This document shows positions 2,284-41,116 of a DNA stretch of 41,116 bases, in pieces; position 1 is the stretch's first letter; the number at the start of each line of letters is the position of its first letter. The notes beneath the pieces are model-generated. The model did not search any database. It saw nothing but the letters and a program-made list of their open reading frames with translations, and was not told where the DNA came from. The position numbers and the translations under genes are program-made. This DNA is from Methylophaga sp. (GTDB lineage Bacteria; Pseudomonadota; Gammaproteobacteria; Nitrosococcales; Methylophagaceae): the NCBI GenBank assembly GCA_007117275.1, contig SKGV01000074.1, positions 1 through 41,116 on the forward strand. The letters are read 5' to 3'.

Positions 2284-2712
2284 GTGCAGGTCTCGATTTT
2301 CAACCAGACCAAGCAAAGCGCTTGGAATTGCTTTCACGCTGAAGGCGTCGCAGCGCTCGCTGGCGGCCTTGAGATTGAAGACTGCCCTTACAGCTCGTGC
2401 AATCTATTCGCGCGGTGTGCGTGGATGGCTGGCTATTGTGACGGTATAGCGGAGGTGGCAATGGATCACATCAGGATGGTTTTTCCAGATGACCTAACAA
2501 TCTGCGAGCTAAAGCAGATTTCCGAGTTAGGTATCCAGCCTGCGTGGCTGGTAGTTAATGGTGAGTACAAGTGGCGGTGGTACAGCACTGAGGTCTTGCT
2601 CGGCGAGATCGAAGAGATCTCTACGATCCTCGGCGCTGACTGCTCTTTTGAGTACGCCAGCGCGAACTATGCGCTATTTATTCGGCGCGAGCAGCAAGTT
2701 AAAGCAGCATAA
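2284..2712 (+). CDS. Hypothetical protein with N-terminal Rmf/CrpP-like motif; internal RBS and in-frame ATG at 2461
   Basis: EGVAALAGGLEIEDCPYSS...RCAWMAGY resembles the Rmf G..AG..G.....CPY.....R..W..GW pattern. Confidence 0.55.
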   Translation: MQVSIFNQTKQSAWNCFHAEGVAALAGGLEIEDCPYSSCNLFARCAWMAGYCDGIAEVAMDHIRMVFPDDLTICELKQISELGIQPAWLVVNGEYKWRWYSTEVLLGEIEEISTILGADCSFEYASANYALFIRREQQVKAA

Positions 2713-2776
2713 AAAAAGCCCCTTCCGGCGGCTACCGGTTGGGGCAGTCATAAAACAGCAGATGGAGTATTCCAAA

Positions 2777-3652
2777 ATGAATCAGCAAGTGCAAGCAATT
2801 GAAATAGCCAACCAGCAATGGATGGCTGCAAACCCTTTAGTCGCATCGCGCGGTTTAGATGAATCCACCTGGAACGCTCTTTGCTCAACCATTTATCCAG
2901 GCTCAAAGCCGGAGTCAATCTTGATGGCTGTTGACTACTGTCGGGCGCGCAAGCTCGACATTATGTTGAAGCCAGTCCATCTGGTCCCCATGCAGGTCAA
3001 AGACGCTCAGTCAGGCCAAAAGCAATGGCGCGACGTGCCTATGCCTGGTGTTGGGCTTTACCGTATTCAGGCTGACAGGTCGGGCGACTATGCTGGTGCA
3101 GATGAGCCTGAGTTTGGCCCAATAATTGAAGCCGAGTTCGATGGCCAGGATTACAACAACAACGCAATCAAGGTAAAGGTCCGTTATCCAGAGTGGTGCA
3201 AGTACACGGTTTATAAAATGATTGGCGGTCAGCGCGTAGCTTTTAAGGCCACTGAGTTTTGGCTTGAAAACTACGCCACTCAGTCCGCCAGATCTGAAGC
3301 GCCTAACGCAATGTGGAAGAAGCGGCCTTTTGGTCAGCTGGCAAAATGTGCAGAAGCTCAAGCTCTTAGAAAGGGGTGGCCTGAGATTGGTCAAGAGCCT
3401 ACTGCTGAGGAGATGCAGGGCAAAAGCTTTAATGAGGTGGATATTACTCCAGACCAGAGCAGCCAGAATCATCAGCCTTCCCGCCCTGCTCTGGAATATT
3501 ACCCAGAAGAAAGCTTTAACCAAAATTTCGGCAAATGGGCGCAAGCAATCTCAGCAGGCATGAAGACTCCTGACGAAGTAATTAAGACGGTCCAGCAAAA
3601 AGGTATCCTGACCGAAGAACAGCAACAGAAAATCAGAGAGGTGGCAGCATGA
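2777..3652 (+). CDS. bet: Phage recombination protein Bet (RecT-family ssDNA annealing protein)
   Basis: YCRARKLDIMLKPVHLVP, GVGLYRIQADRSG.YAG and MWKKRPFGQLAKCAEAQALRKGWPE motifs; GGAG RBS before ATG 2777. Confidence 0.9.
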   Translation: MNQQVQAIEIANQQWMAANPLVASRGLDESTWNALCSTIYPGSKPESILMAVDYCRARKLDIMLKPVHLVPMQVKDAQSGQKQWRDVPMPGVGLYRIQADRSGDYAGADEPEFGPIIEAEFDGQDYNNNAIKVKVRYPEWCKYTVYKMIGGQRVAFKATEFWLENYATQSARSEAPNAMWKKRPFGQLAKCAEAQALRKGWPEIGQEPTAEEMQGKSFNEVDITPDQSSQNHQPSRPALEYYPEESFNQNFGKWAQAISAGMKTPDEVIKTVQQKGILTEEQQQKIREVAA

Positions 3653-5235
3653 TTATCATGGACCTGGTGCAAGGATCAGAAGCTTGGCACAAATTTCGCG
3701 CCGAGCACGACACGGCATCTGAAGCCAGCATTGTTATGCAGTGCAGCAAGAATGTATCCCGTAGCGAACTGCTGCGGGAAAAAGCAACCGGCTCTGAGCG
3801 TGAGTTCAGCGCCTGGTTTGAGAAAAACATTCTGGAAAAGGGCCACCGGGTCGAGGCTTTGGCCCGGCCTATCGTTGAAGCAGATATAGGAGAAGAGCTT
3901 TATCCAGTTACCGGCAAGTCAGAAGACTATGATCGCCTGGCAGCCAGCTTTGACGGTATAACCATGCTGTTTGACATTGTTTGGGAGTGCAAGCAGTGGA
4001 ATCAAGAAAAGGCTACGAGTGTTCGCGAGGGCAAGATTCCAGAGTGTGACTTCTGGCAGGTGGTACAGCAGCTTGTTGTTTCGCGCGCGCGTACCTGTAT
4101 TTACACGGTGTCTGATGGCACCGAAGAAAATACGATCTCTTGCCAGTACCAGTTGCAACCAGAAGATGAAATGCAGCTGGTTTCAGGCTGGGCACAATTC
4201 AACGAGGATCGCGCTGCCTACACAGCTAAACCTGAGCAGGCTGAAGCAGTCGGAGAAAAGCCAGAAAGCCTCCCTGCTCTGCGCATAAATCTGACCGGCG
4301 CAGTCACTGCCAGCAACCTCGCTGAGTTCAAAGAGCAGGCTTTGGCACGGATTGATGCAATCAAAACCGATCTGCAAACTGATCAAGATTTTGCTGATGC
4401 TGAGCAGACGGTGAAGTTCCTCAAGGGTGGTGAAAAGGACTTGGAGGACGCCAAGGCTAAGGCGCTGCAAGACACGGCCAGCATTGATGAGCTGTTCAAA
4501 ACAGTCGATGAGCTCAAGGAAAAGCTGCGCCAAAAGCGGCTGACTCTTGAAAAGCTGGTCAAGGCCGAAAAGGAAAACCGCCGTCTGGCTATCCTGCAAT
4601 CCGCCCTGGCTGACTGGCGGGAATGGCTGAGCGCGCAAGACTGCCCTGTCACTCTGACGCTACAGCCTGCCGTAGCTGAGGCCATGAAAGGCAAGAAAAG
4701 CATCAAAGGCTGGGAGGATGCCGCAGCCGATGCGGTAGCCAGCGCCAAGATTGAAGCTCGAAAGGAGATTGAGCGCATCAAAGCCAACTACGACTGGCTG
4801 AAGGTCAACGGAAAGGATCACATGCACCTGTTCCCCGACTGGGCGCAGCTGATTACCGCTGACGCAGAGCTTATGCAGCTCAAGGTTCAGCAAGCCATCC
4901 AGCAAGAGCAGCAGCGCCTGGATGCAGAACGCGAACGTATCCGTCAGGAAGAAGCGGACCGCATTCGTGCAGATGCGCAGCGCAAGGTTGAAGAGGTACA
5001 GCAAGAGCCAGTGCAAGGGCCGTCTGAATCAGCGCCTAATGATGATCCTGGTTATCGCTTGCTGCCGCCACTCAAGCCAGCGAGCGCTGTCAGCCAGCCT
5101 GAGCAGGTCACAATCAGTAAGGCCGAATACCAGCGTCTGCTGGAAGCCGAAGCCCTGCTGGAAGCCCTGAAAGCGCACGGTGTAGAGAAACTGGCCTGCT
5201 GGCGTAAGGCTGCTGAGCAGCTGGAAGCGGCGTAA
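3649..5235 (+). CDS. YqaJ/lambda-exonuclease-family protein with a long coiled-coil C-terminus
   Basis: QGSEAWHKFR..TASEA, GHRVE..AR, ASFDG, WECK and QVVQQL motifs; ATGA-coupled to bet. Confidence 0.9.
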   Translation: MIIMDLVQGSEAWHKFRAEHDTASEASIVMQCSKNVSRSELLREKATGSEREFSAWFEKNILEKGHRVEALARPIVEADIGEELYPVTGKSEDYDRLAASFDGITMLFDIVWECKQWNQEKATSVREGKIPECDFWQVVQQLVVSRARTCIYTVSDGTEENTISCQYQLQPEDEMQLVSGWAQFNEDRAAYTAKPEQAEAVGEKPESLPALRINLTGAVTASNLAEFKEQALARIDAIKTDLQTDQDFADAEQTVKFLKGGEKDLEDAKAKALQDTASIDELFKTVDELKEKLRQKRLTLEKLVKAEKENRRLAILQSALADWREWLSAQDCPVTLTLQPAVAEAMKGKKSIKGWEDAAADAVASAKIEARKEIERIKANYDWLKVNGKDHMHLFPDWAQLITADAELMQLKVQQAIQQEQQRLDAERERIRQEEADRIRADAQRKVEEVQQEPVQGPSESAPNDDPGYRLLPPLKPASAVSQPEQVTISKAEYQRLLEAEALLEALKAHGVEKLACWRKAAEQLEAA

Positions 5236-9936: not shown

Positions 9937-10225
9937 CGATGATGCCGAGGCTTGGTATCCGCCGAGCGATGCAGCCTTGTCTCTTGAAAGAATCAGATCC
10001 GAAAGAGATCACTACAAAAGAATGGCGGCTGAAATGGCCGAGCTTGATGCGGCAAGGCGCAGCGCTGCTCCTTTAATTGGAATTGATAGGCAAAGAATCC
10101 AGCAGCTGGCTTTAAAGGCTGGGTTCACGCTCAAAAAGCAAGAAAGCGGGGGTTATGACCTGAGCCCCTGTATCTATGATCTTGCAGAGCGAATCAGCAG
10201 AGAGCTTCAAGGGAGGTTCAAGTGA
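9923..10225 (+). CDS. Hypothetical protein
   Basis: GGAG RBS; overlaps the end of the upstream gene. Confidence 0.65.
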   Translation: MKPVSDDAEAWYPPSDAALSLERIRSERDHYKRMAAEMAELDAARRSAAPLIGIDRQRIQQLALKAGFTLKKQESGGYDLSPCIYDLAERISRELQGRFK

Positions 10226-10335
10226 AAAAGCTATCTGAAACATTGCGCCAGATTCATGTTCAGCTGGGGATTGAGATTCATAGGTGGCGTTATATCACGC
10301 GAGAAGACACGATATTTTTTAAGTATCAAAGATAA
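10222..10335 (+). CDS. Possible 37-aa peptide
   Basis: GGAGG RBS and GTGA overlap with the upstream stop. Confidence 0.35.
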   Translation: MKKLSETLRQIHVQLGIEIHRWRYITREDTIFFKYQR

Positions 10336-10376
10336 ACAAGAATCCTAGGAGATCGAGATGAGTGCAGGAGGGCTGG

Positions 10377-10628
10377 ATGCAAAAGCTAAAAATTGGTGAC
10401 CATGTGAGATTTATTGGGCAGAGCTGGGGATATAAAAACCCCGTTCTTTTGATGCTTGTAAACAGAACTGGAGTAATAGAGTCAATATCCGACAAAGCAG
10501 AAGCGGACTGGTTTGTAAGAATGGACGAAGGAGTTATTGATATTGATGCAAAATCAAAAGTGCTGGGAAAGATTGAGCCGCATGAGGCTGATAATTTTGA
10601 GTCTCGTGAAGTGTGCGAGCAGGTATAA
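10377..10628 (+). CDS. Hypothetical protein (SH3/KOW-like start); stop codon lies inside attC-like site 1
   Basis: GGAGG RBS; MQKLKIGDHVRF...; TAA at 10626-10628 is part of GTATAAC. Confidence 0.7.
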   Translation: MQKLKIGDHVRFIGQSWGYKNPVLLMLVNRTGVIESISDKAEADWFVRMDEGVIDIDAKSKVLGKIEPHEADNFESREVCEQV

Positions 10629-10670
10629 CGCCGCAATCAACGGCCTGTCCGTTGCATTGCTTTGTTATTT
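10623..10670 (-). repeat. attC-like site 1 (48 bp)
   Basis: + strand GTATAAC GCCGC AATCAAC ggcctgtcc GTTGCATT GCTTT GTTATTT. Confidence 0.8.
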
Positions 10671-10701
10671 GATGGATTAAGAAAATTGAGAGGTGAGGGT
10701 T

Positions 10702-10941
10702 ATGGGCGAAGAGCGAAAAACCAAGGAATTGGCCGAGAAGGCGAAGCAGGTCAGTATTCCAGAATGGGCAACTCACGTTGCAGTTAGGACTGACGGCAGT
10801 AAATCCGAGCCTTGCGCGTGGATGGAAAAAGCCAATGATTATGTAGACGAAGACCCTAGACAGCTAAAAGATGGTATGTGGGCTGGGGGATATAAATCCT
10901 ACTACTGGGTGTTCTTTGATCGCGCAGAGTTAGCCAAATAA
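10702..10941 (+). CDS. Cassette ORF A, hypothetical (79 aa)
   Basis: GAGG RBS; fills the space between sites 1 and 2; stop lies within the TAAC of site 2. Confidence 0.75.
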   Translation: MGEERKTKELAEKAKQVSIPEWATHVAVRTDGSKSEPCAWMEKANDYVDEDPRQLKDGMWAGGYKSYYWVFFDRAELAK

Positions 10942-10987
10942 CGCCGCAATCAACGCCCGTTAGGTGCGTTGCATTGCTTTGTTATTT
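10936..10987 (-). repeat. attC-like site 2 (52 bp)
   Basis: + strand AAATAAC GCCGC AATCAAC gcccgttaggtgc GTTGCATT GCTTT GTTATTT. Confidence 0.85.
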
Positions 10988-11023
10988 GAACGAAACATTA
11001 ACGAAGACCACGAGGTAGATGCT

Positions 11024-11293
11024 ATGAGCGATTTTGCAAAACTTTTCCAGAGCGAAAAGTATGGGCAACTGGTTGTGATTATGCAGGGATCAGACGATGG
11101 CTGTCCGGAGCTGAGGATCTTTATGCAACCTTCTGGGTACGGTGTGTGCTCTATGGGCTTGCAGTACGAAGATTCTGATAGCGGATGGGATAAGTGTGAA
11201 GCCAATTTCGAGAAGGCGGATCTGGCGTGGGCGGAACGGACGGTGCAGCCGACGCTTGATTACATCGCATCTGCTAACGCGCAAGAAGAATAA
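11024..11293 (+). CDS. Cassette ORF B, hypothetical (89 aa)
   Basis: GAGGT RBS; MSDFAKLFQSEKYGQLVV...; stop lies within the TAAC of site 3. Confidence 0.75.
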   Translation: MSDFAKLFQSEKYGQLVVIMQGSDDGCPELRIFMQPSGYGVCSMGLQYEDSDSGWDKCEANFEKADLAWAERTVQPTLDYIASANAQEE

Positions 11294-11338
11294 CGCCGCA
11301 ATCAACGCCCGCAGGCGCGTTGCATTGCTTTGTTATTT
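11288..11338 (-). repeat. attC-like site 3 (51 bp)
   Basis: + strand GAATAAC GCCGC AATCAAC gcccgcaggcgc GTTGCATT GCTTT GTTATTT. Confidence 0.85.
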
Positions 11339-11354
11339 GGCTCTGGAGGCGAGA

Positions 11355-11645
11355 GTGGAGCACATAAGAGAAGCATTAAATGCAGTTCTGGAGCGTGCAG
11401 CATCTCTAACAGATGATCAGCTGCAAGCCGAGTTTGACTCTTGTAGGGGCGGGGCCGTTGCTTATGCCGTGAAAGGGATGTGGAACACTCCGAGACATAT
11501 TTGGATTGTGATGTGTTCCGACCATGAGGCCAGCTGGCCTATTGCGGCATTTTGGGATGAGAATAACGCACATAATCATGCCAAGAGCAGAAGGCTACTC
11601 CCTAATGAGATCAGTTGTGAAGTGATGCCGATGAGAGTGTTTTGA
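11355..11645 (+). CDS. Cassette ORF C, hypothetical (96 aa)
   Basis: GGAGG RBS 5 nt before GTG 11355; ends 2 nt before the AAATAAC of site 4. Confidence 0.7.
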   Translation: MEHIREALNAVLERAASLTDDQLQAEFDSCRGGAVAYAVKGMWNTPRHIWIVMCSDHEASWPIAAFWDENNAHNHAKSRRLLPNEISCEVMPMRVF

Positions 11646-11647
11646 AC

Positions 11648-11707
11648 AAATAACATTGAGATAGCGTGCCTGCCTACTATTCAGGCACGACTATCATTTC
11701 ATCAGCG
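11648..11707 (-). repeat. Variant terminal att-like hairpin (site 4) at the convergence of the early and late arms
   Basis: AAATAAC ATTGA GATAG-CGTGCCTG cctactatt CAGGCACG-A-CTATC ATTTC ATCAGCG. It has the same R-5nt-stem-5nt layout and one bulged base, but the distal R box is degenerate. Confidence 0.55.
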
Positions 11708-11708
11708 A

Positions 11709-11957
11709 TCAAAAATAATTATCGAGAGCCTGTTCGACTTTAGTTCTCAGAGTTGATTCTGTTTCTTTTTTCAGTGCCTCAATCCCGCTGCTCTTAATGC
11801 TATCCAGCGCCACGCGCATCTTATCCTGATCTTCGAGGCCAGACTGCTCCGCGACTTCAATTCCGCGCTTGATCTCTGCTGCAAGAGCTTTGTCCATTGC
11901 TGTTCGCAGCAGGAATTTGGCCAGTTCGAAAGCCAGCACTTTTAGAAAACTTGTCAT
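11709..11957 (-). CDS. Lysis-cassette-associated hypothetical protein with an amphipathic N-terminal helix
   Basis: Coupled to the endolysin stop; MTSFLKVLAFELAKFLLR. Confidence 0.65.
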   Translation of the reverse strand: MTSFLKVLAFELAKFLLRTAMDKALAAEIKRGIEVAEQSGLEDQDKMRVALDSIKSSGIEALKKETESTLRTKVEQALDNYF

Positions 11958-12863: not shown

Positions 12864-12900
12864 TCACATGTTTCCAAGCCAGTTAAATGCGGTTATTGTA

Positions 12901-13320
12901 TCACAGGTCGTCCAGCTCTTTGCGCAGCGATTCTGCCTCAGCATCTAGCTCCGCCAATCTATCCCGATCTTCTGCTGTGTCCGTTCCGACATTGATTGCG
13001 CGCAGAGGGCGGACAGACTCAAGGTCGAGGCGCTGGAGTTCGGATTTTATCTCGCTAATGCGCTCCGCATCTTTCTCGGTTTGAGTCTCCTCAGGTTCTG
13101 GCTCGTGATACCAATCCCCATCCTGCCAAACAGGCTCTTTGTGACCCTCTTTCTTTTCGGGCTTGATCGTCAGAACCACAGTACCGTTATGTGCTTTAAT
13201 AAGCCCGCCTGAAAGTGCATGGCTTCGAGCTTCGTCATATTTCTCGTCAGAAATCTCGACACCTTCATCAATAGGGCGTTTGCTTATTTGTCCTTCTGCT
13301 GCGTAGGGCATTTTATACAA
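12901..13320 (-). CDS. Tail fibre assembly/chaperone-like protein
   Basis: Follows the tail fibre; C-terminal ELQRLDLESVRPLRA...RLAELDAEAESLRKEL. Confidence 0.6.
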   Translation of the reverse strand: MYKMPYAAEGQISKRPIDEGVEISDEKYDEARSHALSGGLIKAHNGTVVLTIKPEKKEGHKEPVWQDGDWYHEPEPEETQTEKDAERISEIKSELQRLDLESVRPLRAINVGTDTAEDRDRLAELDAEAESLRKELDDL

Positions 13321-14311
13321 TCCTCATATAATAAGTGGTCTCAATGTGCTTAACATTTGTATGATCGCCGGTTCTAGCGCTGGGGGAGTTGGCAGAGTCG
13401 AAATCGACTATGAACGGCCCTGGAGTTATAGCTGTGCTTTGAATTCCGTTTCCTGTAGAGCCAGTAGCGGTAAACGCTCCGGATGCGCTTCTTATTTGTT
13501 TTGCGCCAATCGAATCCCCTCCCTGAAACTGACCAGTTATCCGCTGCATCTGGTCATTAGCAACTGCGCCACTATTTTTACCCGGCATCAGGTAGCGGTT
13601 TTCCGAGTTAATCAGGTGGATTGTATTCCCAGCGAGTGGGCCTGTTGCAATCTCGGCTGTAATTTCAATAGTAGGGCCGCTGCCGGTGATTGTTTCGTTG
13701 ATCAGCAGCCCCTCGTTAAACTGTCCAGCTCCGTCAAGTCCTGCCGTGAGCTTTACGAATTTAGCATCACCTGCATTGCTGGGTTCTACAATTCCGTTTA
13801 AGTGGGTTGCAAGATTAAAGGTTTCGCCAATAATTTTTCCCATCTCGCCTAGCCGAAGCGGGTGCGCCCGATCAGTCGGAGCGCCTATTTTAAAAGTGCC
13901 GCCTGAATCTCTGACCGGCACGCTATCGGCAGTGGCTTCGGTGTCAAACGCAAAAACACGCCACTCAGACGAGGGGGGCGCGGTTGTGGTGCCGTCAACA
14001 ACAGCCTGATAATAAACCCCATTAAATCGTACAACAGCGGTTTCTGGGTAGGAATAAAGATTGCCCAAACCATCATCAGCGATAAACTCGGGGAACCCTT
14101 GCTCTTGCCATTCTTTAATGTTTGCAGTGGCATCATTGAGCACTTGATTAAACGGCTGCCTGCCAATGCTTTTTCGATTCGGGTCAGTTTTTGGTAGCGA
14201 GTAGTCCGGTGTGTAGCCCTGCTGATAGCTGACACTTCCACCGGCCGCCTCATCTGGAATGGGTTGGCGGTCGCCATTGACTGCCCACGGAAAACGAATG
14301 TATTTAGCCAT
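13313..14311 (-). CDS. Tail fibre protein
   Basis: N-terminal PWAVNGDRQPIP..GSVSYQQGY..DY baseplate-anchoring motif; C-terminal DQMQRITG...FDSANS..ART...T.VK fibre motif. Confidence 0.8.
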   Translation of the reverse strand: MAKYIRFPWAVNGDRQPIPDEAAGGSVSYQQGYTPDYSLPKTDPNRKSIGRQPFNQVLNDATANIKEWQEQGFPEFIADDGLGNLYSYPETAVVRFNGVYYQAVVDGTTTAPPSSEWRVFAFDTEATADSVPVRDSGGTFKIGAPTDRAHPLRLGEMGKIIGETFNLATHLNGIVEPSNAGDAKFVKLTAGLDGAGQFNEGLLINETITGSGPTIEITAEIATGPLAGNTIHLINSENRYLMPGKNSGAVANDQMQRITGQFQGGDSIGAKQIRSASGAFTATGSTGNGIQSTAITPGPFIVDFDSANSPSARTGDHTNVKHIETTYYMRIV

Positions 14312-27787: not shown

Positions 27788-28927
27788 TTAAAGCCCCATT
27801 TCTTCGAGTTTGGAGACAACCGCGGCAGCAGACGCAGCGTCTTGCGCGGTGCCGCTGTCAATAGTGGTGCCTGCATTCTTGCGGGCATGAAGATAGCCGC
27901 GAACAGCCGCCAGAGCAGAGCCAGAGTCGCAAGCGATACCGATGATTTCAGCGGCTTTCTTTGCAACGCCAGCAGCATCAAGGCCTGTGCCATCAATGCG
28001 GCCAATGACCGGCTCAAGCTCCTTGACAAGGTTTTGCTTTTCAGTGATCTGGCGCTCAATAGTGTCTGAGTCCATAGCCTTACCACTCAACTGCTTGACC
28101 TGTTTTTGCAAACCAGCAATGGTTTTCGCCATAGCGTCCATCGCTTCCGAGTCGTAAACTTTACCTTCACCTTCTTCCTCTGGTTTCTCGGCACCGGCCG
28201 CGACAGCCTCTTCGGCACCGGCCGCGACAGCCTCTTCGGCACCGGCCGCGACAGCCTGTTCACCATCACCCAGCATAGCGCCGATTTCGGCGTAAAGCTT
28301 GGCGAGCTCTTCCTTAGCGGGTTCAGCGTCCCGCACCTTTTGCAGCATTTCTTCAAGTGTCATTTCTAGACCCTCTTCAATAGTTAAGCTATCCAGCGCA
28401 ATACACGCCCGATCCATTGCCACAGAAAACTGTGACCCCATTCGCCCCTCTTCAACGCTGGCTAAGTGGTTGCCACGGATATTCCGCTGAACAACATCAT
28501 ACCGCAAGCCGTCCGGTGTTGTGCCGCCTACAATGTCCCATGTGCAACGAAATCCGCAAGACAGCTCGCGAAGCCCAGCTTGTATTGCTGACTTTAAGCT
28601 GGTTCCGAAGGTTTTTACTGTGCCAACCAAGCCAGCGCCTTTTTTGTAGTGTACGTCCTGCCCCGTGGTACCTTGTACGCCGATATCTTCAGCAGCGGTA
28701 AATGATTCTCCCGCCATTTCGTGACGCGGAAACCAAGGAGAGAGCTTGAAAGACTCTATGGTTTCAGGATTGTTTAATTCAGACTCTGGACGGTAAACAT
28801 TATAGACACGGTCAGGGTCAAGCTCTGGTGAAATCTCGCGACCCAGATACGGGAAAACACCCGGCTTTGAAAGCATGGTGTTCGGAAAGGTGACGTAACC
28901 GTTTTCGTCTTCGTAGTATTCTGGCAT
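27788..28927 (-). CDS. DUF2213-like prohead protease/scaffold protein
   Basis: GVFPYLGREI, VYRPE.EL, ELSCG..C and QRNIRGNHLA.V.EGR.G motifs; recurring AMD motifs. Confidence 0.85.
   Translation of the reverse strand: MPEYYEDENGYVTFPNTMLSKPGVFPYLGREISPELDPDRVYNVYRPESELNNPETIESFKLSPWFPRHEMAGESFTAAEDIGVQGTTGQDVHYKKGAGLVGTVKTFGTSLKSAIQAGLRELSCGFRCTWDIVGGTTPDGLRYDVVQRNIRGNHLASVEEGRMGSQFSVAMDRACIALDSLTIEEGLEMTLEEMLQKVRDAEPAKEELAKLYAEIGAMLGDGEQAVAAGAEEAVAAGAEEAVAAGAEKPEEEGEGKVYDSEAMDAMAKTIAGLQKQVKQLSGKAMDSDTIERQITEKQNLVKELEPVIGRIDGTGLDAAGVAKKAAEIIGIACDSGSALAAVRGYLHARKNAGTTIDSGTAQDAASAAAVVSKLEEMGL
28188..28257. repeat. 24-bp tandem repeat, about 2.9 copies, in frame (AVAAGAEE)
   Basis: Unit TCGGCACCGGCCGCGACAGCCTCT at 28188, 28212 and 28236. 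Confidence 0.9.
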
Positions 28928-28962
28928 GATTCCTACCTCATGTATTTATGGCCAGTGTACCG

Positions 28963-38769: not shown

Positions 38770-38969
38770 CCAGCATCCCTCGCAAGCCAGCGCCCCACTT
38801 TGTCGCTCACCGCTCTGAGCCGGTCGCCCTCAGTGCAACCGGACGGCTGCGCTTTGAGCTTCGTGTGAGCGGACTGGCAAAGAGGACACTGAAAATAATG
38901 TCCGCGCCAGTTTTCGATAGCTGCCATCGCTTTCGGGTCGCTGCGCATCAGCTTGATAGCACTTGTCAT
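38766..38969 (-). CDS. Small hypothetical protein (H..C..C...C)
   Basis: ATGA-coupled on both sides. Confidence 0.6.
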   Translation of the reverse strand: MTSAIKLMRSDPKAMAAIENWRGHYFQCPLCQSAHTKLKAQPSGCTEGDRLRAVSDKVGRWLARDAG

Positions 38970-39759: not shown

Positions 39760-40710
39760 TCAGTCCCTCGCCCAATCTGGAATTTCTGTTTCGCCGTAGT
39801 TCATCTGGTCGAAGCCAGAATCGACATAGCCAATACGACCATCAGCGCGTTTCGGTGCTCTTGGCGCTGCAATCGCCCAGTCGTTTTCAAACTCGCGGCT
39901 GGTGCCAAAAAACCGCTTGGCTTGCATCACGAAACCGGTACCGAGGTCGCCCTTAGCTGTGACGAATACAGCGTACCGCTGAACACCAGCGAGCATGTCT
40001 TCAGGGCTGACACCTTCGGCCAGACGTGCGCGCCAGCACTCGAGTGCCTTGTTTTTTGGATTGGAGCCTTCGCGCTTTGGATACGCAGACCAAGCTTGCT
40101 CGAAAGCTGGATCAGCAGGCTTGGTGTTCGGGGCTGGTTTTTTGGGTGCGGGTTTTTGTTCAGCTGGCTGCTGATCGACAGTCACTGGCTCGGGTACGTG
40201 TGCCACTAATGCGTAAGCATTAGGGGTTTTATCTTTTATATTTTGTAGAGTTTCTTTTGTGTGGGACTGTTTTGGTACTGCCTGAGAATCCAAAACGGTA
40301 CTGTTTTTCGGGACTGTTTTGGATTTAACAGGACTGTTTTGGTGCTGATCTGTTTTCCAGTTTTCCAGATCCATGTTGATACCGATCTCGCGCCCTGATT
40401 TAAACAAAACATTCATAGATACCAGCTCTCTAACAATTGCTCTAGCCCTTGTCTCTGGGAGGCGTGTTTTTTCTTCTAACTGGCTGCCGGAAACCCAATC
40501 TGAATCCTTGCCGTATCCAAGTGTTTTTCTTGCAACAGCCAAGAGAATCTTCTGCTGACGCTTGGTAAAGTCGTGATACATGATTGCTTCCAGCAAGGCG
40601 TTAGGAATGCGCGTGTAGCCATCCTCCATTGTTGCCACCTGCTTAGGTTTGCAAGCCTCTTGCTGAGGCTCGCTGATGGGTTTTACGGGGAATTGAAGTA
40701 CAGTGCTCAC
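39760..40710 (-). CDS. Replication initiator, lambda O-like N-terminal domain
   Basis: DGYTRIPNALLEA...R.T.GY.K..D motif; internal iterons; C-terminal FEQAWSAYPKR domain. Confidence 0.88.
   Translation of the reverse strand: MSTVLQFPVKPISEPQQEACKPKQVATMEDGYTRIPNALLEAIMYHDFTKRQQKILLAVARKTLGYGKDSDWVSGSQLEEKTRLPETRARAIVRELVSMNVLFKSGREIGINMDLENWKTDQHQNSPVKSKTVPKNSTVLDSQAVPKQSHTKETLQNIKDKTPNAYALVAHVPEPVTVDQQPAEQKPAPKKPAPNTKPADPAFEQAWSAYPKREGSNPKNKALECWRARLAEGVSPEDMLAGVQRYAVFVTAKGDLGTGFVMQAKRFFGTSREFENDWAIAAPRAPKRADGRIGYVDSGFDQMNYGETEIPDWARD
40225..40342. other. Probable replication origin: iterons plus AT-rich tract inside the initiator gene
   Basis: GGACTGTTTTGG at 40264, 40311 and 40331, a variant GGTACTGTTTTT at 40297, and an adjacent AT-rich run at about 40225-40260. 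Confidence 0.75.
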
Positions 40711-41116
40711 GCGGCCACCTCCAGCCCTGCCAGCTTTGCCATGTACTCCACGCCTTTTGGTGTGTAGCGAGCTTGCGTGAAGGCATGGCCGTTATCTGCG
40801 CTGCCAGTCTTAACCGCAAAGCGGCCGGCGTCGATTTGATGCTGGTAGGGAGTCCAGCGGCCATTAATCTGATACATAATCTTGTGTTCAACTTCGAGCT
40901 GACGCAGCTCATGCTGCTTCAGGCCGAGCACCTTGGCGACTTCACGGAAAGTCATTGTTCCAGCGGCTTCAACGTAGCGACCAACAAACTCGACTGCTGG
41001 CTTTGCAGCTTCCAGTTGCTCTAGTGCCGCCTGTTTTTCTTCTTCAAGGTCTGCGGCATAACGCAGCAGCTCAGCCTTGGTTTGAGGGATCGCGCTCAAC
41101 TGGCTTTTTAGCTCCA
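40707..41116 (-). CDS. Phage antirepressor, C-terminal KilAC/ANT domain
   Basis: AKPAVEFVGRYVEA..MTFREVAKVL..PYQHQIDAGRFAVK..TPKGVEY is typical of the ANT/KilAC domain. Confidence 0.85.
   Translation of the reverse strand, partial: ELKSQLSAIPQTKAELLRYAADLEEEKQAALEQLEAAKPAVEFVGRYVEAAGTMTFREVAKVLGLKQHELRQLEVEHKIMYQINGRWTPYQHQIDAGRFAVKTGSADNGHAFTQARYTPKGVEYMAKLAGLEVAA
41006..41116. repeat. Terminal direct repeat, right copy
   Basis: Identical to 1-111. Confidence 0.95.

Follow-up and report, generated by a model that had tools for sequence, protein, structure and literature searches.

The 41,116-nt window (the whole stretch of DNA analysed here) is a complete circular phage genome of ~41 kb with a 111-nt terminal repeat, and it carries an integron array without an integrase of its own, composed of three one-gene attC cassettes and an attI-like site, in which the genes are reversed and the units are probably recombined in trans by the integron integrase (IntI) of a likely Marinospirillum host (Table 1). 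By definition the locus is a CALIN (at least two attC sites within 3 kb and no integrase nearby) and not a complete integron, no intI having been found beside the array in the window. The reversed polarity and the terminal attI-like site are points absent from an earlier sequence-only reading of this DNA, which had described an integrase-less cassette array.

Table 1. Coordinates of the features of the cassette array and its borders in the window.
Feature	Position	Strand	Description
Upstream gene	10377..10628	+	83 aa, no family; TAA stop inside site 1 R' box
attC site 1	10623..10670	- (top strand; recombinogenic bottom strand = +)	48 bp; predicted crossover 10628/10629
Cassette A	10629..10941	-	313 bp: attC, leader, reversed gene
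Gene A	10702..10941	+	79 aa, no family; stop codon in site 2 R' box
attC site 2	10936..10987	-	52 bp; extrahelical C and T on +, 6 bp apart
Cassette B	10942..11293	-	352 bp
Gene B	11024..11293	+	89 aa, phrog_9037
attC site 3	11288..11338	-	51 bp; 50-bp identity to a Marinospirillum sp. MEB164 site (L052)
Cassette C	11294..11653	-	360 bp; unit adjoining the docking site
Gene C	11355..11645	+	96 aa, no family; GTG start
attI-like docking site, host type	11647..11673	-	predicted crossover 11653/11654
Hairpin	11660..11695		overlaps docking site, where early and lysis genes converge; z -4.6

The phage contig was binned with a fragmentary 1.14-Mb assembly, and 91% of the sampled words of the window are present in one soda-lake run, possibly the source sample. 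Searches against Pfam and PHROGs identified a block of contractile-tail morphogenesis genes, further genes of the O-like replication, anti-repressor and Cro-like types, and an early operon on the positive strand encoding RecT-, RecE-, RdgC- and SSB-like proteins; the array occupies the distal end of this operon, facing the lysis genes. The same searches gave no match to a tyrosine or serine recombinase among the 67-72 ORFs of the window and none to a CI-like repressor, and in the whole bin a six-frame search with PF00589 matched another contig only and nothing on the phage. The Cro-like and anti-repressor genes are located at 1-2600 and 40700-41100, a region with no CI-like repressor or integrase match, and judging by this combination the phage was possibly once temperate. 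The end segment (5051-5190) of the RecE-like exonuclease (ORF 3649-5235) resembles the T7 gp5.9 RecBCD inhibitor (PF25708 over cut-off), and a tRNA-Arg(TCT) lies at 1429-1505 between the divergent early operons, with a similar tRNA (87.5%) in a second phage, G045, described below. No relative of the array region or of the attC site was found among GenBank phages, and a search for relatives via the gene to the right of the array found none.

Three copies of a repeat had been claimed at 10623, 10936 and 11288, and a degenerate pattern matches three times in the window and 0 times in 100 shuffles. The AAC triplets at 10627, 10940, 11292 and 11652 give the unit lengths previously stated (313, 352 and 360 bp), while the sites, put at 48-52 bp, measure 48, 52 and 51 bp. 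Along the positive strand every site consists of an AAC, a 5-nt spacer, stems of 3 bp and 6 bp, the loop, the returning 6 bp, an unpaired C, the returning 3 bp, 5 nt and a GTT, which makes the positive strand the attC bottom strand; a bulged hairpin forms from either strand (z -2.4 to -5.5). The first extrahelical base on the positive strand is a C in 3/3 sites, located on the 3' arm (L'') opposite the AAC arm, and the second is a T in site 2, a C in site 3 and merged into the loop in site 1. Extrahelical bases of attC sites are usually a G, then a T six base pairs further. The two-bulge attC geometry proposed earlier stands in part: the hairpin on the positive strand has an extrahelical base in all three sites, but the usual G is replaced by C and the second T occurs in site 2 only. 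The AAC and GTT core boxes, a central spacer of 5-6 nt and the L box of attC sites are all present; as the sequence-only reading had remarked, the sites are short (48-52 bp versus the quoted 57-141 bp) and their R boxes depart from RYYYAAC. The 57-141 bp range is descriptive and not defining for attC, since 48-bp sites occur in complete integrons. An Rfam search returned nothing close to a gathering score.

The identity of the repeats as attC sites, previously a claim, is shown by this anatomy together with their occurrence in complete integrons. The family pattern was identified at nine loci in bacterial genomes and five in metagenomes and is common to chromosomal-integron arrays of Marinospirillum, Alkalimonas and Thiopseudomonas; an IntI scoring over the cut-off is encoded in 4/4 tested bacterial genomes holding a family site, directly beside the array in Alkalimonas. 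Site 1 has a near-identical 48-bp counterpart in a Thiopseudomonas integron (L047). One cassette is common to Thiopseudomonas and Alkalimonas, the shared DNA starting at TAAC and running rightwards while the gene lies on the opposite strand, and natural variation therefore fixes both the junction and the polarity. Across 26 distinct short sites the arrangement AAC-N5-3 bp-bulge-6 bp is kept, both stems showing compensatory changes, although these sites were selected by a finder that demands pairing and the percentages arise partly by construction; the extrahelical base among them is C, T or G. The 5-nt spacer and the bulge, on whose conservation the earlier interpretation had been made to depend, are constant across all 26. 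In a Thiopseudomonas integron with this attC family, a cassette near intI (L060 360-700) is presumably aadA-like.

The pairing of the two R boxes of each unit was also borne out, at 5/5 (A), 3/5 (B) and 5/5 (C) positions beyond the triplet. Among reversed units, the R boxes of the same unit pair at 5/5 positions in 7/11 cases, compared with 1/10 for boxes paired in place (one unit is without a left flank), and in canonical controls the corresponding counts are 7/9 and 0/9. Own-unit pairing of this kind marks selection acting on the circular form.

All three cassette genes lie on the attC bottom strand, opposite to textbook cassettes, and the TAA of the R' box serves as the stop codon of the upstream gene, gene A and gene B. 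No sigma-70-like promoter was found on the positive strand in 10200-11800, in agreement with the promoterless units claimed earlier. An Atlas search gave no usable match for genes A and C; homologues of gene B are present in 25 phage records, and no attC was found at their ends in the seven contexts examined. These attC-free homologues fit the formation of cassettes from ordinary phage genes, the direction not being given by them. PHROG membership was tried as a marker of phage origin and set aside, as it gave no discrimination between reversed (2/13) and canonical (12/40) cassette genes (E <= 1e-5). No attC was found to the left of the upstream gene (10377-10628). The leader before this gene, at 10280-10366, is retained in relatives, which diverge after it, and holds a GTT box nearly complementary to the 3' end of the gene, which is thus possibly the remnant of an eroded cassette.

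The docking site that closes the array was compared with a matrix built from six Marinospirillum-genus attI candidates located 331-344 bp upstream of intI, two further loci having ended at contig ends; the host candidates were picked with a motif chosen after the phage site was seen. With this matrix the window site (11651) takes first place among 82,188 positions (16.8 vs 7.0 bits), as does the corresponding site of phage G045 among 149,914 (19.4 vs 10.9 bits); the docking site is identical to host attI at only 13-17/23 positions. The presence of an attI at the head of the array is thus judged by sequence only. The site has no homology to attC beyond TAAC, and a reading of this fourth boundary (11652) as a decayed attC was rejected, there being no R'' box and the bulge being out of register. 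A scan with the terminal motif returned 22 loci, with a family attC nearby in G045 alone, so the motif by itself is unspecific. The hairpin at 11660-11695 is possibly a terminator, though it was not called by the terminator scan.

Phage G045 (75 kb) carries a four-cassette array, 4/4 reversed, that is closed by the docking site of the window and is located among replication genes; no integrase match was found in it. The two phages share only the distal tail fibre region, the tRNA and the attC/attI-like sites and are otherwise unrelated. The identity of 78-81% in the tail-fibre region (12888-13945) suggests a host receptor common to both. The G045 array includes one truncated site (L002 3104-3150), and at 38800-38845 the genome holds a lone attC whose left arm resembles the terminal site.

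Marinospirillum is the likely host, as indicated by CRISPR spacers and ssb. A type I-E-like CRISPR array in G064, a genome of the same genus as Marinospirillum sp. MEB164, contains among the 40 spacers read matches to the window at 31/33 (28897-28929) and 28/33 (28713) positions, and a match to G045 at 27/33; among 41 genomes, the ssb of the window has its best match in MEB164 (G042), at 87% identity. The bin's own genus was considered as host, but 36 other genomes gave only partial ssb and tRNA matches, and the binning was accordingly not counted towards the host assignment. IntI is encoded in 8/13 Marinospirillum-genus genomes.

Reversed cassettes also occur in the host genus. MEB164 holds five on four contigs among the 23 small contigs read, and two of the four also carry canonical cassettes and the long attC of the host; none of these short contigs is linked to intI. 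The leaders in MEB164 resemble those of cassettes A and B and precede unlike genes. M. alkaliphilum (G041) has one reversed cassette amid canonical ones, beside chromosomal metabolic genes, and its gene belongs to phrog_19209; in a viral contig, a homologue of this gene lies behind an attC-like site of the same strand. Apart from these cases host arrays are canonical, the top-strand gene being the longest in 9/10 segments of L050; no reversed cassettes were found in further stretches of G061, G064, G065 and G068, no complete cassette of the window was found in a host genome, and a Marinospirillum region with a RusA-like match contained no array.

The recombinase could instead be an IntI-like enzyme of a co-infecting phage or prophage and not the chromosomal IntI of the host, a source to which the spacer-bearing genome lends some support, as no full intI was found in G064. 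This is improbable, however, as neither of the phages searched whole (the window phage and G045) encodes such an enzyme and the docking site resembles host attI.

Comparison with related phages, proposed earlier as a search for variation by whole units, brought out such variation: in contigs from four runs, other genes stand between sites, leaders and a terminal site that are all retained. Joints across other DNA run from 11007 to 11646, from 10670 to 11648 and from 10671 to 10934, and in one contig the upstream gene is followed by a variant site and then directly by B, without gene A (10620 to 10967). The similarity of relatives to the right flank of the window begins at 11646-11650, and one loose end behind leader A is the start of the first cassette gene of G045. 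These joints belong to related phages and are not excision products, and several have sides of <30 letters; no circular-cassette junctions were seen in the contigs of the runs. A scan of viral contigs for the exact site gave 0 matches and a relaxed scan gave three, one of them (L003) without an array.

Homologous recombination of the RecET type between the 45-bp repeats could be the main shuffler of these units: RecT-, RecE- and SSB-like proteins are encoded by the phage, the repeats are 83-96% alike, and cassettes with unlike genes share leaders. As the main agent it is decidedly unlikely, because it leaves unexplained both the complementarity of the two R boxes of a unit and the different genes that end exactly at the docking site; in a lesser role, RecET recombination may help make new cassettes. 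A host integron fragment captured once and static since then would account for sites nearly identical to chromosomal ones, and illegitimate capture has been suggested for phage CALINs (PMC9892861). Such a capture is very unlikely and already largely refuted by the contents that vary among relatives at site boundaries; host arrays, moreover, are mostly canonical, yet 3/3 cassettes here and 4/4 in G045 are reversed.

In lambdoid phages, int and attP sit beside the lysis genes, where the early recombination operon ends. The array of the window has the same location, and the sites might therefore stand in for a phage integrase, the whole 41-kb circle acting as a cassette that enters host attI or attC as a prophage; the presence of an anti-repressor and the published example of an attC-flanked Vibrio prophage point the same way. 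There is little chance that this holds, as no CI-like repressor match was found, G045 has the same platform among replication genes, and no such prophage occurs among 13 genus genomes. Finally, although the positive strand of the repeats folds and two sites pass a terminator-like scan, a role for them as intergenic signals in RNA, whether terminators or processing hairpins, is exceedingly unlikely, as bacterial integrons carry the same sites with genes on the other strand and the R-box pairing fits a circular DNA form, and any effect at the RNA level may be a side effect of the sites.

Under the favoured reading of an array recombined in trans by the host, Marinospirillum IntI would act on the folded positive strands, excising units as circles at AA|C, and the circles would insert at the phage attI. 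Transcription of the cassette genes would come from the far end, out of the early operon; a Pc would then be dispensable, and incoming cassettes would extend the operon at its end, leaving the recombination genes upstream undisturbed. In host attI, which the same circles would also enter, the gene would lie antisense to Pc and hence be silent. Location of the bottom strand on the lagging-strand template is reported to raise excision (PMC5371416). The GC skew of the window has its minimum at 40041, in a replication gene, and its maximum at 11668, at the docking site, a pattern that may only reflect transcription. Speculatively, a fork from an origin near 40041 would use the positive strand as lagging-strand template, and the reversal would then place genes co-directional with the fork and bottom strands on the lagging template, favouring recombination.

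Cassette arrays in phages are already documented. Qi et al. 2023 (PMC9892861) described 17 phage CALINs, with IntI1 recombining 5/6 tested sites, and the novelty of a phage location implied by the sequence-only reading consequently falls: integrase-less phage attC clusters have been published and are recombinogenic. The window array resembles them in its attC cluster, its single genes and the lack of intI in the phage, and attC1 of TJE1 (~50 bp) is about as short as the sites here; unlike the window array, the TJE1 CALIN is canonical. The PH101 array has genes on the bottom strand too according to its GenBank record, and its sites were recombined by IntI1 (PMC9892861); the main text of that paper carries no remark on reversed genes, while its figures and Dryad file may show the PH101 reversal. 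Shewanella prophage M16-3 has an attI before its CALIN, plus its own intI (PMC9892861). In Shewanella phage 3/49 the attC finder showed no clear array, and in P12002L the orientation of the array rests on one motif only. Known already, then, are phage CALINs and their recombinogenic sites; what is added here beyond Qi et al. (PMC9892861) is the recognition of reversed polarity, a host-matched attI-like end in a virulent phage, unit variation among relatives, and reversed host cassettes that bear the same sites. Searches of the open-access literature turned up no paper on phage cassettes in reverse orientation or on phage attI sites that match those of the host.

With sedentary chromosomal integrons (PMC5027507) the array has in common the attC anatomy, the AA|C crossover, an attI-like site and one promoterless gene per unit. 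It differs from them in the lack of intI, in bottom-strand genes with stops in R' and in sites of 48-52 instead of 57-141 bp (PMC5027507), and also in that transcription would run towards attI, from the phage operon. SALINs and attG insertions (Loot et al., bioRxiv 10.1101/2022.09.11.507474) likewise involve IntI acting in trans on integrase-free DNA, and small CALINs could arise in this way; here, however, the target is a conserved host-like attI in two unrelated phages and not a chance GWT site.

The locus adds evidence for the sharing of cassettes between phage and host. A broader scheme, which we hold more tentatively and consider somewhat less than an even prospect, is that phages and host run one IntI-driven cassette pool of two polarities, in which reversed cassettes would be built in phages by addition of an attC-leader to ordinary phage genes, traded between unrelated phages via a copy of the host attI, and stored silent in host arrays for later phages. 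If so, phages would be a visible birthplace of integron cassettes, the formation of which has been described as largely unknown (PMC5371416). Relevant to this origin are a cassette gene with attC-free homologues in ordinary phage operons and the same attC and leader carrying unlike genes; host arrays, moreover, contain cassettes readable only from a phage operon. As the host genus is culturable and sites measure 48 bp, the direction of flow and recombination in trans are directly testable. Host integron arrays are reported to store anti-phage genes, and the phages would, if the scheme is true, exploit a host enzyme whose arrays reportedly do so.

Further sites were noted outside the two phages. 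Viral contig L001 has a row of reversed attC-like sites amid phage genes at 2500-4520, with no integrase in the 17-kb record. Marinospirillum chromosomes contain extra attI copies without adjoining intI (L048, L154 and L155), and their arrays include many near-identical gene-less cassettes of ~400-500 bp, often adjoining attI (L104-L107, L110, L154 and L164).
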